Origin: Candidatus Sulfomarinibacteraceae bacterium
GTDB taxonomy: Bacteria; Acidobacteriota; Thermoanaerobaculia; Thermoanaerobaculales; Sulfomarinibacteraceae
DNA length: 64,000 nucleotides
Direction of reading: 5' to 3'
Assembly (NCBI GenBank): GCA_963796455.1
Contig: CAWCLO010000001.1
Location: 864,001-928,000 of the forward strand
In this document: one piece after another, positions 1,031 through 63,701 of the stretch
Position numbering within the stretch: position 1 is the stretch's first letter
How the letters are laid out: the number at the start of each line of letters is the position of its first letter
The notes under the pieces: generated by a model
The model's database searches: none
Told to the model about the DNA's origin: nothing
Seen by the model: the letters and a program-made list of their open reading frames with translations, nothing else
Position numbers and translations under genes: made by a program

Positions 1031-1189
1031 CCCTTCATCCTCGATGCTGGATGCTGGATCACTCGTGCCCAGGTGCGAGTTTCGGACAGCGATCAGGGAC
1101 AGCGACGGTGAACGGCAGACAGCGTCAGCAAACAGGAGTCAGCGGCAGCGACCAGCGGCCGGGGCAGCGACAGCGCCAGCCAACACCAA

Positions 1190-1305
1190 TCAATCCGTCG
1201 GGTCCAACAACCGCCAGGTCTTCGCACGGACTTGATCGCGATTCCTGCTGCTTCGAGGGCTTTCGAGTGGGCGACGAGGTTGGTGTTCGTGGCGGCGTTG
1301 GACAT
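1190..1305 (-). pseudogene. Internally deleted four-helix-bundle protein gene
   Basis: N-terminus MSNAATNTNLVAHSKALEAAGIAIK is identical to 9498-9851 and is joined out of frame to DQVRAKTWRLLDPTD* (intact copy: DQVRAMTWRLLNPKF*). Confidence 0.9.
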
Positions 1306-1308
1306 GGT

Positions 1309-1438
1309 CACCTCCGGGTCGTTCATGCCCTTACCCGCAAGCCGGTGTGGTGGCCGATTTCAAGGATGCCCTGCACCCTGCCTGTCCTTGACATCGGCCG
1401 CCCACCGGCTACCCCTTCCTCTGAACGACCCGGAGGTG
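1309..1438 (-). promoter_or_regulatory. 130-nt hairpin covering the Shine-Dalgarno of the four-helix-bundle gene (copy 1)
   Basis: Perfect 17-bp IR CACCTCCGGGTCGTTCA (1309-1325) / TGAACGACCCGGAGGTG (1422-1438), plus nested stems GCCGGTG/CACCGGC and GGCCGAT..TCAAGGA/TCCTTGA..ATCGGCC. Confidence 0.75.
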
Positions 1439-8334: not shown

Positions 8335-9342
8335 ATGCAACCGCGCAATCTGGCAATAAGCGACGCTCTTCGTGGCATACGGGACCGAGACCGTGCCGTT
8401 CTCGGAAAGGCCATCACCCTCGTCGAGTCGAATCTCGAGGCCGATCGATCGATCGCCCGGCAGCTGCTCACCCGCCTGCTCCCCCTCACCGGCGGTTCCT
8501 ATCGCATCGGCATCTCGGGTGTGCCCGGAGTCGGCAAAAGCAGTTTCATCGAGTCATTTGGGCTCCAGCTCATCGAGGCCGGTCACCGGGTGGCGGTGCT
8601 CGCTGTCGATCCCTCTTCATCGCTGTCCGGGGGATCGATCCTCGGTGACAAGACCCGCATGGAACGACTGGCGGCCCACGACGAGGTGTTTATCCGGCCC
8701 TCACCCACCGGTGGAACCCTCGGTGGTGTCGCCCGCAAGACCCGGGAGTCCATTCTGGTGTGTGAGGCGGCGGGCTACGACGTGGTGTTGGTGGAGACCG
8801 TCGGTGTCGGCCAGTCCGAGACCGCTGTCGCCGACATGGTCGATTTTTTTCTCGTTCTCAAACTCACCGGCGCCGGAGACGAGCTCCAGGGCATCAAACG
8901 CGGCATCCTCGAACTTGCCGATCTCATCTCCATCAACAAGGCGGACGGCGACAACCTGGAGGCTGCGGAAAATGCTCGCACCGAGTTCGAGCGAGCGCTC
9001 GATTTGCTGAGGTCAGAAGCCGAGAACGGATGGAAACCGAGGGTCGTGACCTCGAGCGGCCATACCGGCGACGGTCTCGACGAGATCTGGTCGATCATTC
9101 AGGAGCATCACACTCTTCTCAGCGAAAACGGTGAACTCAAAAATCTACGTCGCAGCCAGCTCATCGGTTGGATGTGGTCAATGGTCGACGAAGGTGTGCG
9201 GGTCGCGACTCGCGAACATCCGCGGGTCGCCGACAAGATTCAGGAACTCGAAAGCGAAATTCTCGCCGGCAAGATAGTTCCCACTGAAGCGGCAGAGAAG
9301 ATACTGGACGCACTCAACCTCGCACGGGGAGTGAAGGACTAG
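8335..9342 (+). CDS. meaB: Methylmalonyl-CoA mutase-associated GTPase MeaB
   Basis: GISGVPGVGKS, AVDPSS..SGGSILGDKTRM, VETVGVGQSE, GDELQGIKRG, INKAD. Confidence 0.95.
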   Translation: MQPRNLAISDALRGIRDRDRAVLGKAITLVESNLEADRSIARQLLTRLLPLTGGSYRIGISGVPGVGKSSFIESFGLQLIEAGHRVAVLAVDPSSSLSGGSILGDKTRMERLAAHDEVFIRPSPTGGTLGGVARKTRESILVCEAAGYDVVLVETVGVGQSETAVADMVDFFLVLKLTGAGDELQGIKRGILELADLISINKADGDNLEAAENARTEFERALDLLRSEAENGWKPRVVTSSGHTGDGLDEIWSIIQEHHTLLSENGELKNLRRSQLIGWMWSMVDEGVRVATREHPRVADKIQELESEILAGKIVPTEAAEKILDALNLARGVKD

Positions 9343-9497
9343 GGATTCAAGCGGGTCAAGAATCCAGCATCACGCTTGTGCAAGACAGGTTCCCGGACGG
9401 CGCTCAGGGACAGCGACGGGGAACAGCAGACAGCGTCAGCGAACAGTATTCAGGAACAGCGTTCAGCGTTCAGTCTGACTTGTATGGAGAACCGAAA

Positions 9498-9851
9498 TCA
9501 GAACTTTGGGTTGAGCAAACGCCATGTCATGGCACGGACCTGGTCAAAGGCATTCATCGCTTCGCAAGCTTGATTCCGGCTGATCGCCCCGGCGTGGGCG
9601 AGGAGCTGCAAGTGGCTGTCAACCTCTTTCGCCGAAGCGTAGGCGATCCTCCAGTGGTTCGAACGGTCTCTTCCGATTCGGCCGTGCCCTTCTGCCAGGT
9701 TCGCAGGGACTGACCTTGCCGACCGGATCACTTGATCGGCTATGGATTTCAGCGGCGCTGGAACCCTCATCACGAGCTTGATCGCGATCCCTGCTGCTTC
9801 GAGGGCTTTCGAGTGGGCAACGAGGTTGGTGTTCGTGGCGGCGTTGGACAT
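9498..9851 (-). CDS. Four-helix-bundle protein (23S rRNA IVP-like / Avd-like), 117 aa
   Basis: Signature ADQVIRSARSVPANLAEGHGR...HWRIAYASAKEV; SD GGAGGTG 3 nt before ATG at 9851. Confidence 0.92.
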   Translation of the reverse strand: MSNAATNTNLVAHSKALEAAGIAIKLVMRVPAPLKSIADQVIRSARSVPANLAEGHGRIGRDRSNHWRIAYASAKEVDSHLQLLAHAGAISRNQACEAMNAFDQVRAMTWRLLNPKF

Positions 9852-9854
9852 AGT

Positions 9855-9984
9855 CACCTCCGGGTCGTTCATGCCCATTCCCACATGCCGGTGTGGTGGC
9901 CGATGTCAAGGATGCCCTGCACCCTGCCTGTCCTTGACATCGGCCGCCCACCGGCTACCCCTTCCTCTGAACGACCCGGAGGTG
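9855..9984 (-). promoter_or_regulatory. 130-nt hairpin covering the SD (copy 2)
   Basis: 17-bp IR at 9855-9871 / 9968-9984; perfect 15-bp inner stem GGCCGATGTCAAGGA/TCCTTGACATCGGCC. Confidence 0.78.
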
Positions 9985-10240
9985 GCCACGCCGTCGCTCG
10001 CCTGATCGCTGCTCACGACCGCTGAATACTGAATACTAATCGCTGACCGCTGTTCCCTGTCGCTGCTCACTGTCACTGCCGCTGGACACTGATCGCTGCC
10101 CCTGAATACTGCCGCTGACCTCTGTCGCTGGCGCTGGACACTGTCGCTGCCGCTGCATTGCGGGCACGGGCGCGGGGGGACCCGCGAACCGGATATGCCA
10201 AACCCAACCCCTGAACCCTGAACCCTGAACCCTGAACGCG

Positions 10241-11803
10241 TTACCAGGGTTGATATTGGACCCGCAGGAGGAAGATGTCGGCCGAACCCCGATCCTTGGG
10301 GGCGGCATGGACATAGTTGAGTTCGACACGGGTTGTGGGGTTGAGGTACCAGTTGAGTCCGGCACTGATGTCGGTGAGTTGGCCGCCCTCGATCAGACCA
10401 TCGTTGAGATCGATGTTCGATATCCGACCGACAAGCTCCCACGATCCCCCGTTCTTCTTTTTGAAAGGATTTCCACCCCGGTACTTGTTGGTGTGCATAG
10501 CCCGGTCCCAGGTTGCGCTGTTTTTGCGGTAGGGTCTGCTCTCTCCGCTAAGAATCCAACCGACCTGAACATAGGATCCCCTGAAGGTGGGATCGCCGAC
10601 GACCTGGGCCGAAACCTGGCTTTCGATGTGCTCCGCCGCAATCCACAGCGGCCCCTGGATCGTAACGAACTCCACCGCCCACAGCAGCAGGTGACTGGCG
10701 TCGATTTTGCCGGTGTCTACGAGGTATCCGACAAACCGGGCCTCCGGCCGCGATCGATAGTGCGCACCCCCACTGGCTGGAGACCGCGAACTGAGCGAGG
10801 CGCCAACGTGGATGATCTTGCGTCCATTATCCCGGTACACCGGGTTGTAGGTCACTCGTCCAGTGATCGAAAGGGCCGACGCACTGGCGTTGGAGTCATT
10901 GCTTTGGCCGAAGGAAAAGAGCCCGGCCGCCCAGGTAAAACGTCCTTTGGCACCGGCGTCGTGCACCATCACGCCGGCGTTCGTCCCGGGCGAGATCGTC
11001 TGCACCGGCAGGGACCGTTCCAACAAGGGGGTGTGGTACGAACTCGCCTGTCGTTCGAAACCGAAAGGCTCCTTCATGAACCCGGCTCGGAGCTTGCCGA
11101 GGTACTTTCCCCAGACCTCGAGACCACCTTCGGAGCCCTCGATCCAGGCATCGGTAAAGCCCCAATCGGGGCCAAACTCAAAGGCGAGATTGGTGTTGAA
11201 ATTCTTAATGCGCCCGGCGGCAAAAAGTGAAAACCGGCGAATATCGAGGGTGGAATTGATGGGTGAGTAATACTCCTCGAAACGATCGTCGCTGGTGCCG
11301 GCCGTGCCGTCGATCTGGATCCTGCCACCGATCCTGAACTTGACCTGCCCGTCGAACAGACTGTAGCGGGCAATGCCCCGAACCCCGTTCATAAACCTAC
11401 CCCACTTGCTTTTCATCGGTTCGGGTTCGATTTCGTCGAGATCGAAGGGCGCATAGTCGGTGAATGCCACATCCCCGGGGTTGGTCACCTGTTCGCTTTT
11501 TGGAGTCGTTTCGTCATCCCCCCCGGACTTCGAGACCGGGGGTGCCGTCGGCGCCGGATCGGTGGCATCGACTCCCTCAGGTTCCTCCGTCGGCGTCGGC
11601 TCAACCACTTCAGCTGGAGTCGGCGCCGCCTCCGCTTCTGATGCAGGAACTTCGGTGGGTGCGGGCGAGGTTTCAGGGGTGGGTGTCGCCACAGGCGTAG
11701 GCCACGCCGGGGGGCTCTGCGCCTCGGCCACGGTACAAACCACGGCCGCAATACACAGCAGCATCATCAGAAAACCCGGAGGACAACCGGTTCGACATCT
11801 CAC
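10241..11803 (-). CDS. OprO/OprP-family porin with Pro/Thr/Glu-rich N-terminal linker (start uncertain)
   Basis: Signal peptide; GGRIQID, KEPFGFE, LERS, GSYVQVGWILSGE, AGLNWYLN, aromatic C-terminus. Confidence 0.85.
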   Translation of the reverse strand: MRCRTGCPPGFLMMLLCIAAVVCTVAEAQSPPAWPTPVATPTPETSPAPTEVPASEAEAAPTPAEVVEPTPTEEPEGVDATDPAPTAPPVSKSGGDDETTPKSEQVTNPGDVAFTDYAPFDLDEIEPEPMKSKWGRFMNGVRGIARYSLFDGQVKFRIGGRIQIDGTAGTSDDRFEEYYSPINSTLDIRRFSLFAAGRIKNFNTNLAFEFGPDWGFTDAWIEGSEGGLEVWGKYLGKLRAGFMKEPFGFERQASSYHTPLLERSLPVQTISPGTNAGVMVHDAGAKGRFTWAAGLFSFGQSNDSNASASALSITGRVTYNPVYRDNGRKIIHVGASLSSRSPASGGAHYRSRPEARFVGYLVDTGKIDASHLLLWAVEFVTIQGPLWIAAEHIESQVSAQVVGDPTFRGSYVQVGWILSGESRPYRKNSATWDRAMHTNKYRGGNPFKKKNGGSWELVGRISNIDLNDGLIEGGQLTDISAGLNWYLNPTTRVELNYVHAAPKDRGSADIFLLRVQYQPW

Positions 11804-44767: not shown

Positions 44768-44810
44768 CCTGCAGCAAGACTTTCTCCCTTTCCGATCCTG
44801 TTCCGCACGA

Positions 44811-45182
44811 GATGCTGGATACTCGATGCTGGATCACTCTTGTCCAAGACAGAGTCTCGAATATCGTACAGGGACAGCGAACAACACTCACTTCTACGGG
44901 GCTCCGGTCTTTGTGGTGCGGCCGTCTCGGCCGCACGGAGGGCAGGCGAGACGCGTACACCACAACGGCTGTTCCCTCTGTTGAACGACCCGGAGGTGAC
45001 CACGCCGTCACCGCACCGGATTGCTGCCACTGCCGCTGGTCCCTGGCGCTGAACACTGATCGCTGGATCCTGTCGCTGCCCCTGGACACTGTCCCGGCCG
45101 CTGATCGCTGTTGTCTGTCGCTGATGACCGCACGCTGCCCCTGATCGCTGTCGCCGTCCCTGAACCCTGTCTTGGACGAGAG
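44811..45182. mobile_element. Family A element copy 3 (REP-doublet cargo)
   Basis: GATGCTG heptamers; IR CTCTTGTCCAAGACAG / CTGTCTTGGACGAGAG; TGAACGACCCGGAGGTG arm; CGCTG-rich arm; core closely matches the reverse complement of 63455-63592. Confidence 0.65.
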
Positions 45183-57606: not shown

Positions 57607-57669
57607 GCCGTTTTTCATCCACGGTTCACGTCGCCGACCCCACACCACGAGGATCGTCCGTCTCCCACT

Positions 57670-57846
57670 CGGGGTCGGGTCTTCTGACTCCCGGATCACT
57701 CTACTGACCGGACCTTCCCATGATCAATCGACCACAGTGGATCCCCCGGCCTTCGTCCCCGGTCACAGCGGCGGGTCCGTGACGGATTTGCACCGTCTTC
57801 TCCGCTCCCCAAGCGTCTCCGAGTGTAGCGCCATCGGAGGCAAACT
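57670..57846 (-). ncRNA. Cobalamin riboswitch
   Basis: Minus strand CGGTGCAAATCCG..CGGACCCGCCGCTGTGA..CCACTG..GGGAAGG..GAGTCAGAAGACC (B12 box) upstream of Btu-like ABC genes. Confidence 0.93.
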
Positions 57847-57886
57847 CAAAGATGGTGTTCGAGACGGCCTTTTTTCGGTCATGAAA

Positions 57887-63211: not shown

Positions 63212-63641
63212 ATGCTGGATGCTGGATGCTGGGTGCCGGATCACTGCTGTCCAAAACAGAGATAGTCATGAAGTTTCCCACCTGACAACACGCGGTTTAC
63301 GGGTTGGTTTTTGGCAAATCCAGTTCGCGGTTGCCCCGTGCCCGTGTCCGCGTCCGCGTCCGTGCCCGAATTGCAGCGGCTGCGACAACGTCCAGGGGCG
63401 GCGACAGGGATCAGCGATCAGAGGCAGAGATCAGGGTCAGCAATCAGGTGCAGTGACGGCGTGATCACCTCCGGGTCGTTCAGCAGAAGGAACACCCGCT
63501 GTGGTGTCGGCGTCTCGCCTGCCCACCGTGCGGCCGAGACGGCCGCACCACCAAGGCCGGATCCCCGAAGAAATGAGTGCTGTTCACTGTCCCGGCCGCT
63601 GATCGCTGTCCGACACTTCCCACCTGGGCCGAGTGATCCAG
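63212..63641. mobile_element. Family A element copy 4, inverted relative to copy 1, REP-doublet cargo
   Basis: (ATGCTGG)3..GATCAC.GCTGTCCAAAACAGA..CCCACCTGACAACA..GGTTTACGGGTTGGTT matches the reverse complement of 1555-1710; the far end matches 1055-1095; the core matches copy 3. Confidence 0.7.
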
Positions 63642-63701
63642 GCTGTGGGACACAACTCTGAAGGTGGGCCCTTGCTCCCCTTCTCGATCGGCTCCTGTTC
63701 G

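Follow-up and report, generated by a model that had tools for sequence, protein, structure and literature searches.

A 130-nt hairpin in the genome of a Candidatus Sulfomarinibacteraceae bacterium (Acidobacteriota) has a structure that is conserved by covariation and, in its predicted fold as RNA, likely buries the Shine-Dalgarno (SD) sequence and start codon of the PF05635 gene that follows it. On balance, we regard the hairpin as probably an RNA leader which, in the manner of the IS200 tnpA stem-loop, masks translation initiation, and we predict that the gene stays untranslated until the leader is cut or opened. The hairpin lies at positions 9855–9984 of the window, the 64 000-nt stretch of DNA analyzed here, and is read on the minus strand.

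The ends of the hairpin form a perfect 17-bp inverted repeat: CACCTCCGGGTCGTTCA, on the plus strand at 9855–9871, has its exact reverse complement, TGAACGACCCGGAGGTG, at 9968–9984. In the sense of the gene, these ends are the two arms of a basal stem, P1. The 5′ arm (9968–9984, minus strand; sense CACCUCCGGGUCGUUCA) is an anti-SD arm that resembles the 3′ end of 16S rRNA, which in this genome reads GGATCACCTCCTTTCT, and the 3′ arm (9855–9871, minus strand) includes the SD motif GGAGG (9861–9857). The minus strand reads UGAACGACCCGGAGGUG (the 3′ arm), ACU, and AUG (9851–9849), so that 5 nt separate GGAGG, and 3 nt the end of the arm, from the AUG. The preliminary description of this locus, made from the sequence alone, had claimed both the perfect pairing of the arms and the 3-nt distance between the SD-bearing arm and the AUG, and both stand.

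Between the arms lies an inner helix (9887–9955, minus strand) composed of a covarying stem, P2, a nearly invariant duplex, P3 (GUCAAGGR/YCCUUGAC), and an apical part. The further stems described earlier inside the hairpin, GCCGGUG/CACCGGC and a 15-bp GGCCGAUGUCAAGGA stem, are both present in the predicted minimum-energy fold. Positions 9840–9995 (156 nt) fold with a predicted −95.3 kcal/mol in the sense orientation (z = −8.49) and −97.9 kcal/mol in the antisense orientation (z = −10.89), energies that none of 200 shuffles equals in either case; P1 as an isolated duplex accounts for −38.6 kcal/mol. A second full copy of the hairpin occupies 1309–1438 (minus strand) and, as was first noticed from the sequence, has the same length and layout, with substitutions mostly in the linker: it differs from the copy at 9855–9984 at 5 of 130 nt, four of them in the 3′ linker (sense orientation) and one an uncompensated change in the 15-bp stem.

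The gene behind the hairpin (9498–9851, minus strand) encodes a 117-aa four-helix-bundle protein of PF05635 (23S_rRNA_IVP)/TIGR02436, scoring 58.3 bits against a Pfam cut-off of 33.8. PF05635 proteins, among them the 23S-rRNA-IVS proteins and the relatives of the DGR accessory protein Avd, are very widespread, and we know of no function for them. An assignment to Avd itself, whose gene neighbors a reverse transcriptase and a template/variable repeat pair, was rejected, because the ∼850-bp cassette that carries the hairpin has a single 117-aa ORF and its neighbors are ordinary convergent genes. The PF05635 model has 70 matches in this genome. Pairwise identity at codon positions 1, 2, and 3 across 68 copies in this genome is 0.88, 0.89, and 0.74, respectively, a pattern that shows the passenger gene to be under purifying selection and hence translated on at least some occasions. 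The gene behind the second hairpin (1093–1326, minus strand) keeps ∼31 codons before running into heptamer-array sequence, and its 77-aa ORF has no Pfam match; this locus is one of 14 in the genome at which a full hairpin stands before a broken gene.

The AUG at 9849–9851 (minus strand; ATG2) is preceded in the same frame, seven codons further 5′, by a second AUG (ATG1, 9872–9870, minus strand) at the inner border of the 3′ arm of P1. Because of this in-frame upstream AUG, either codon may be the true start in the window's family. ATG1 may be the ancestral start, since the genes of two distant versions of the hairpin (G049 and G036) start at its position and another paralogue in the genome begins MND. 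In relatives, the stem reaches across ATG2 (CAUGGUCACCUCC.../...GGAGGUGACCAUG), and whichever AUG is used, the start falls inside P1.

Four PF05635 paralogues outside the cassettes were examined (C4:1278094–1278408, C1:983149–983445, C9:2726–3031, and C10:733004–733315). Each is bracketed by its own inverted arrays of 7–8-nt units, e.g. GCAGAGGA/TCCTCTGC and ATCGCTA/TAGCGAT, and in two of the four the upstream array reaches the start codon and includes SD-like purines.

The hairpin is highly repeated. A BLAST search of the 5.02-Mb genome located it at 94 loci, comprising 68 full copies (≥ 125 of 131 nt, 91.6–100% identical) and 26 partial ones. When one genome per species was searched with a pattern of the exact arms, at least 67 loci were found in Acidobacteriota, mostly in MAGs of Thermoanaerobaculia and ‘Candidatus Sulfomarinibacteraceae’, and a few of the matching bins carried another label. 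In a search of 119 genomes of the order, a covariance model built from 57 distinct hairpins has matches in 68, including 63 of the 76 that belong to the window's family and 4 of the 42 from a sister family. Most matched genomes hold many copies, with up to 24 per genome among the matches listed. Given the 68 full and 26 partial copies in one genome and the conservation across a bacterial family, the hairpin is not a product of chance.

Building a homologue-based covariance model had been named earlier as a check on the structure, and the alignment behind it bears the structure out. Standard pairs fill 97.8% of 2108 cells in the 57-sequence alignment, pairing falls to 23–48% when partners are slid by 1–3 columns, and none of 500 shuffles attains any of five measures. 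Double-sided changes occur in 15 of 37 pairs (105 cells), and all 15 belong to the 21 pairs of the inner helix. The near-invariant parts are the basal stem P1, the 8-bp duplex P3 (GUCAAGGG/CCCUUGAC), and a UAG just 5′ of the inner helix; the invariance of P1 partly reflects ascertainment, as the search pattern that supplied 40 of the 57 rows prescribes the sequence of both arms. P1 does vary among relatives: L048 carries a double compensatory change (GGGTTGTTC/GAACAACCC), and in G049 (three copies) and G036 (two copies, from the sister family) P1 is a different helix of 20–25 bp. Within this genome, pairwise identity across the 68 copies is 0.96–0.99 in the stems, 0.80–0.88 in the linkers, and 0.53–0.63 in the flanks, so that the stems are more tightly held than codon position 2 of the gene (0.89).

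An Rfam search, another check named at the outset, matched no known family to the hairpin. With Rfam 15 at the gathering threshold over the whole window, the hairpin was unmatched, and a permissive search (E up to 10) of positions 9300–10320 returned only miRNA-precursor models, at 14–29 bits against thresholds of 50–268. The only hit in the window at the gathering threshold is a cobalamin riboswitch (RF00174) at 57657–57847 on the minus strand (79.9 bits, E = 4.6e-18). A full-text literature search found no description of the hairpin or of heptamer-flanked PF05635 cassettes. The preliminary description had called the RNA undescribed, which holds for the hairpin itself as regards Rfam and the literature searched, but not for its class, since SD-sequestering leaders of mobile-element genes are known from IS200.

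The hairpin is connected to the start of translation, which the basal stem overlaps in three sequence versions. In the window's family, the P1 3′ arm is the SD, followed by 3 nt and the AUG; in most relatives, the arm continues through the AUG; and in G049 and G036, it is made up of the start codon plus roughly the first eight codons, and the internal loop holds a purine-rich stretch at the place where the SD would lie. The SD is strong, GGAGGUGA(C/U)C complementing the tail of the genome's own 16S rRNA, GAUCACCUCC, and it stays unchanged in four loci in which the 5′ arm is mutated (L045, L046, L067, and L112). The stem thus pairs the SD or start codon with an upstream anti-SD, as in an SD-sequestering leader. 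Its predicted effect on accessibility is large: the probability that the SD is unpaired is 0.0 in the full leader and 1.0/1.0/1.0/0.01/0.00 after removal of the 5′ arm. Among 58 intact genes of the cassette type, 57 have a full hairpin, one has a partial hairpin, and none lacks it. The arm that tracks the start, the fixed SD arm, and the 57/58 coupling together tie the hairpin to translation initiation rather than to DNA movement. In 11 of the 68 copies, the central part of the anti-SD arm has a U-to-A change that is left uncompensated, which counts against the masking reading.

These findings also bear on the earlier proposal of a cis-regulatory RNA. Covariation, a basal stem that covers the start, and the 57/58 coupling all fit it; what has to be revised is the scale, since the hairpin is not a one-off riboregulator but part of a cassette with ∼70 copies.

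The hairpin could instead be mainly an element for RNA processing, stability, or protein docking, such as an RNase III site at which the passenger is cut away from host transcripts or an operator for the pentameric four-helix-bundle protein, with SD masking as a side effect. P2 and P3 form a near-perfect duplex of ∼26 bp in many relatives, P3 and the UAG beside P2 are invariant while their neighbors covary, which points to recognition by a factor, and the whole gene lies between inverted heptamer arrays. The gene family is, moreover, known from IVSs excised by RNase III (PMC4990558). We nevertheless consider this reading unlikely, because it leaves unexplained both why the basal stem tracks the start codon despite sequence change and why it is the SD arm that does not vary.

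Which strand is functional was examined through wobble pairs. A set of 206 tblastn hits, drawn from this genome and from the retrieved loci, was narrowed to 175 with the gene's N-terminus and sufficient upstream sequence, then to 151 that had both the CCUCC and GGAGG anchors, and finally to 131 unique hairpins. Their minimum-energy folds contain 254 G·U pairs in the sense orientation and 342 in the antisense orientation, and the antisense fold is the more stable one in 94 hairpins, compared with 36 for the sense fold and one tie. Within this genome, the antisense excess of G·U pairs is largely due to one polymorphism, C·A in 38 of 68 copies and C-G in 30. The 57-sequence table has 11 G·U versus 16 A·C cells (with the doubtful pair 50/140 excluded), and all five isolated A/C mismatches in P3 would be G·U on the opposite strand. 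We relied on the comparison of sense with antisense, because counts of A·C mismatches and of G·U pairs in folds are not symmetric measures. Wobble statistics thus give no favor to the sense strand, and the caution voiced earlier about strand was sound: the inner-stem C·A mismatch of the sense strand is a G·U pair on the other.

The antisense-leaning folds raise the possibility of two RNAs, a sense leader and an antisense hairpin sRNA that would pair in trans with the leaders of all copies. IS200 has exactly that layout, with art200 opposite the stem-loop in tnpA's 5′UTR (PMC4513863), and in the present hairpin the sense 5′ half of P3 (GTCAAGGG; opposite strand, CCCTTGAC) varies less than its 3′ half. 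Against this, the candidate −10 hexamer 16 nt past the antisense TTGACA, judged by eye, conserves only the T and A and not the last T, and a promoter scan found none inside the hairpin. We give the two-RNA arrangement little credence.

The same scan, of positions 9250–10350, found a single promoter-like site, located beyond the hairpin and on the opposite strand to the gene, and recognized no promoter upstream on the gene strand. Three other identities for the hairpin or its parts were considered and rejected. The TTGACA in P3 does not serve as a −35 box, as no TAnnnT hexamer lies 16–18 nt downstream on either strand (by eye); an intrinsic terminator is contradicted by the lack of a U tract and by zero terminator-like sites in the scan; and an integron attC-like site does not fit, as the GTT/AAC core layout is reversed (by eye) and the copies are dispersed rather than arrayed. 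Contigs of one metatranscriptome library span the hairpin and upstream flank of a relative, though they may stem from DNA in the library and do not allow strand, start, or level to be read. Twenty-four public runs were listed, one of them RNA (share 0.09), and the four runs examined consist entirely of contigs, so that missing coverage over part of the cassette carries no information.

The hairpin belongs to a repeated unit of ∼850 bp with terminal inverted repeats and 9-bp target duplications, and without a transposase. Read in the orientation of the gene, the unit begins with an 18-bp end, CACTGCTGTCCAAAACAG, and a ∼100-nt upstream module, continues with (CAGNNNN) heptamers, the hairpin, and the gene, and closes with an inverted array (NNNNCTG) and the other terminal repeat, CACTCTTGTCCAAGACAG (read inwards). 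In the window copy, the upstream part (9985–10240, minus strand) comprises a (CAGNNNN)n array, an end-module remnant, TTGGCATATCCGG (10189–10201), and (CAGGGTT)4, and the downstream part (9371–9497, minus strand) comprises the inverted heptamer array (NNNNCTG)n and the downstream terminal inverted repeat (9371–9388). This copy is without the usual upstream terminal repeat; (CAGGGTT)4 extends to the stop codon of the neighboring gene instead.

Genome-wide, 84 pairs of ends were found, 70 of which combine one end of each kind; 27 of these mixed pairs enclose a full hairpin (805–883 bp), 35 enclose none (329–672 bp), and eight enclose a partial one. A perfect 9-bp direct repeat stands exactly at the ends in 16 of the 70 pairs (e.g. 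ATGCTGGAT and ATCGAGTAT), and a direct repeat of at least 7 bp in 26. The window cassette sits between two convergent protein genes that are only 33 to ∼100 bp apart at the empty site in six genomes of the genus, compared with ∼900 bp here. Judged by its terminal repeats, 9-bp duplications, and empty orthologous sites, the vehicle of the hairpin is a transposase-less cassette of the MIC/MITE kind.

MIC231-type MICs and MITEs of DDE transposons have terminal repeats, a target duplication, a passenger gene in place of the transposase, many copies, and shorter derivatives. All these features recur in the present cassette, and they describe the vehicle, not the hairpin. The cassette differs in lacking an identified autonomous partner: this genome, examined for pairs of ends separated by up to 3 kb, yielded no autonomous element bearing these termini. 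The genome has no ISL3 transposase, which together with the 9-bp duplications speaks against an ISL3 affiliation; an IS4 partner was not confirmed either, and the single DDE_Tnp_1 gene was rejected as a partner, its 25-bp terminal repeat being unrelated to the cassette ends.

Many cassette copies are inserted into pre-existing heptad arrays of the (GGATGCT)n type, where the 9-bp duplications read AT-N5-AT (ATGCTGGAT, ATGCAGGAT, ATCGAGTAT); this suggests a target preference for such arrays. The empty orthologous spacers (L147, L151, L155, and L156) contain short inverted heptamer arrays of their own, e.g. GAGTTGA.../...TCAACTC and AACGTTC.../...GAACGTT, so that heptamer palindromes seem to be general in the intergenic DNA of the lineage.

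The cassette also has a short derivative that equals the full form in number, with ∼75 copies genome-wide, two of them in the window (∼44800–45080, minus strand, and ∼63380–63700, plus strand). It keeps only the 5′ (anti-SD) arm of the hairpin; the other hairpin parts and nearly the whole gene are replaced by a different, structured module of 80 nt that folds as a 12-bp stem around two small hairpins. Target duplications of at least 7 bp flank 12 of the 35 paired short elements. Since the derivative has reached ∼75 copies with target duplications, movement needs no hairpin in cis, and the cassette transposes without it.

Nine of the 26 partial loci (e.g. C1:368260, C1:391091, and C10:438255) share a deletion junction that fuses a GGCCGA from the hairpin's 5′ half with a mid-gene GGCCGA, which reflects either a repeated microhomology deletion or one derivative that spread.

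Alternatively, the palindrome could work as DNA, as a cruciform or single-strand hairpin in cassette movement, replication, or recombination, and overlap the SD by accident. In favor of this, the hairpin is a deletion hot spot, both through the GGCCGA junction and through other partial loci that lost the segment between two GGCCAC repeats; both strands fold equally well, and wobble is not biased to the sense strand. However, the 18-bp terminal repeats and 9-bp duplications mark cut-and-paste DDE transposition, which needs the ends only, and the derivative that has lost the 3′ arm, P3, and the gene has multiplied with target duplications of its own. A function as DNA would also not account for a 3′ arm that lies on the start codon in three sequence versions, or for a hairpin that is kept by 57 of 58 intact genes and is dispensable where the gene is gone. 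We regard this explanation as very improbable.

For an RNA leader that masks translation initiation, we propose the following course of events. Transcription of the leader would begin upstream, in the cassette's own upstream module or in host genes whose transcripts read through into it, and the 130 nt of the leader would fold as a three-part hairpin whose basal stem covers the SD and start codon. Translation would then be off in any transcript that has both arms, with a P1 of 17–23 bp blocking binding of the 30S subunit. Because a hairpin of −95 kcal/mol cannot open unaided, the ‘on’ step is wholly inferred: release would need an active step, most likely RNase III cleavage of the 26-bp P2–P3 duplex or of P1, and a factor that reads the invariant P3 duplex may be an alternative opener. 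We favor cleavage of the RNase III type because P2–P3 is a near-perfect duplex of ∼26 bp and P1 one of 17–25 bp, because the genome has an RNase III gene, and because the PF05635 family sits in 23S IVSs whose stems RNase III cuts. The arrangement would make the same sense as in IS200 and IS10: the passenger of an element with ∼60 to 70 copies would be silent when host transcription runs in.

We also advance, as a speculation that we think improbable, that the hairpin is a shared control module, its invariant P3 and UAG set in covarying stems, and would be the first RNA partner of the PF05635 family. The ∼60 copies would then be switched together, either by a pentameric protein that reads its own leader or by an antisense hairpin RNA that strips off the anti-SD arm in trans. 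If this is true, the shared module would amount to a copy-number-sensing circuit on a transposase-less element.

The closest known counterpart of the proposed leader is that of IS200. In the tnpA mRNA of this element, a ∼70-nt inverted repeat in the leader brings an anti-SD into pairing with a near-perfect SD and keeps the 30S subunit from binding (PMC4513863). The likeness to the Salmonella and Escherichia coli leaders extends to an SD sequestered ahead of the only gene of a mobile element and to a hairpin RNA on the opposite strand (PMC4513863). Unlike IS200, the present cassette carries a gene for a PF05635 four-helix-bundle protein and not a transposase, and repression here is predicted. 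The present hairpin is also twice as long, is built in three parts with an invariant inner duplex, is far more stable, and is without sequence or Rfam relation to that of IS200. The ‘off’ state also has an analogue in the fold-back inhibition of IS10. RNase III-activated leaders, such as those of phage lambda N and E. coli adhE, have a long duplex over the ribosome-binding site, and translation depends on its cleavage; the present leader resembles them by layout only, and its cleavage would be the conjectural step.

The 23S rRNA IVSs with S23p offer a second comparison, through the gene rather than the leader. In Coxiella burnetii, the stem of the IVS is cut by RNase III and includes the putative SD of the PF05635 ORF, and heptameric repeats flank it (PMC4990558). 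The cassette shares with the IVSs of C. burnetii and Leptospira the gene family, the complementary flanks, and the heptameric repeats described in that study (PMC4990558): its PF05635 ORF lies between complementary flanks, with inverted heptamer arrays on both sides. In contrast to an IVS, the window copy lies between convergent protein genes and not in 23S helix 25 or 45, and the genome's own 23S gene, at 3011 nt against a 2925-position model, has no ORF-sized insert. The SD-masking stem here is a local 130-nt hairpin, not a terminal stem, and the present unit moves, by its sequence features, as a cassette that has terminal inverted repeats and is flanked by target duplications.

An SD-sequestering leader on a mobile-element gene is thus known as a kind; what is new is the size of the hairpin, its three-part build with an invariant inner duplex, the gene family that hosts it, and its abundance across a bacterial family. 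The motif is present in hundreds of copies across this family of Acidobacteriota and is absent from Rfam. That ∼58 intact copies per genome are held under purifying selection, with the hairpin more constrained than the protein, argues that expression of the passenger is both wanted and dangerous. As a covarying structured RNA that can be cloned and tested in E. coli, the motif provides a concrete handle on these elements, and it could reveal what keeps such cassettes silent, what activates them, and whether they are connected to the rRNA IVSs through RNase III processing.
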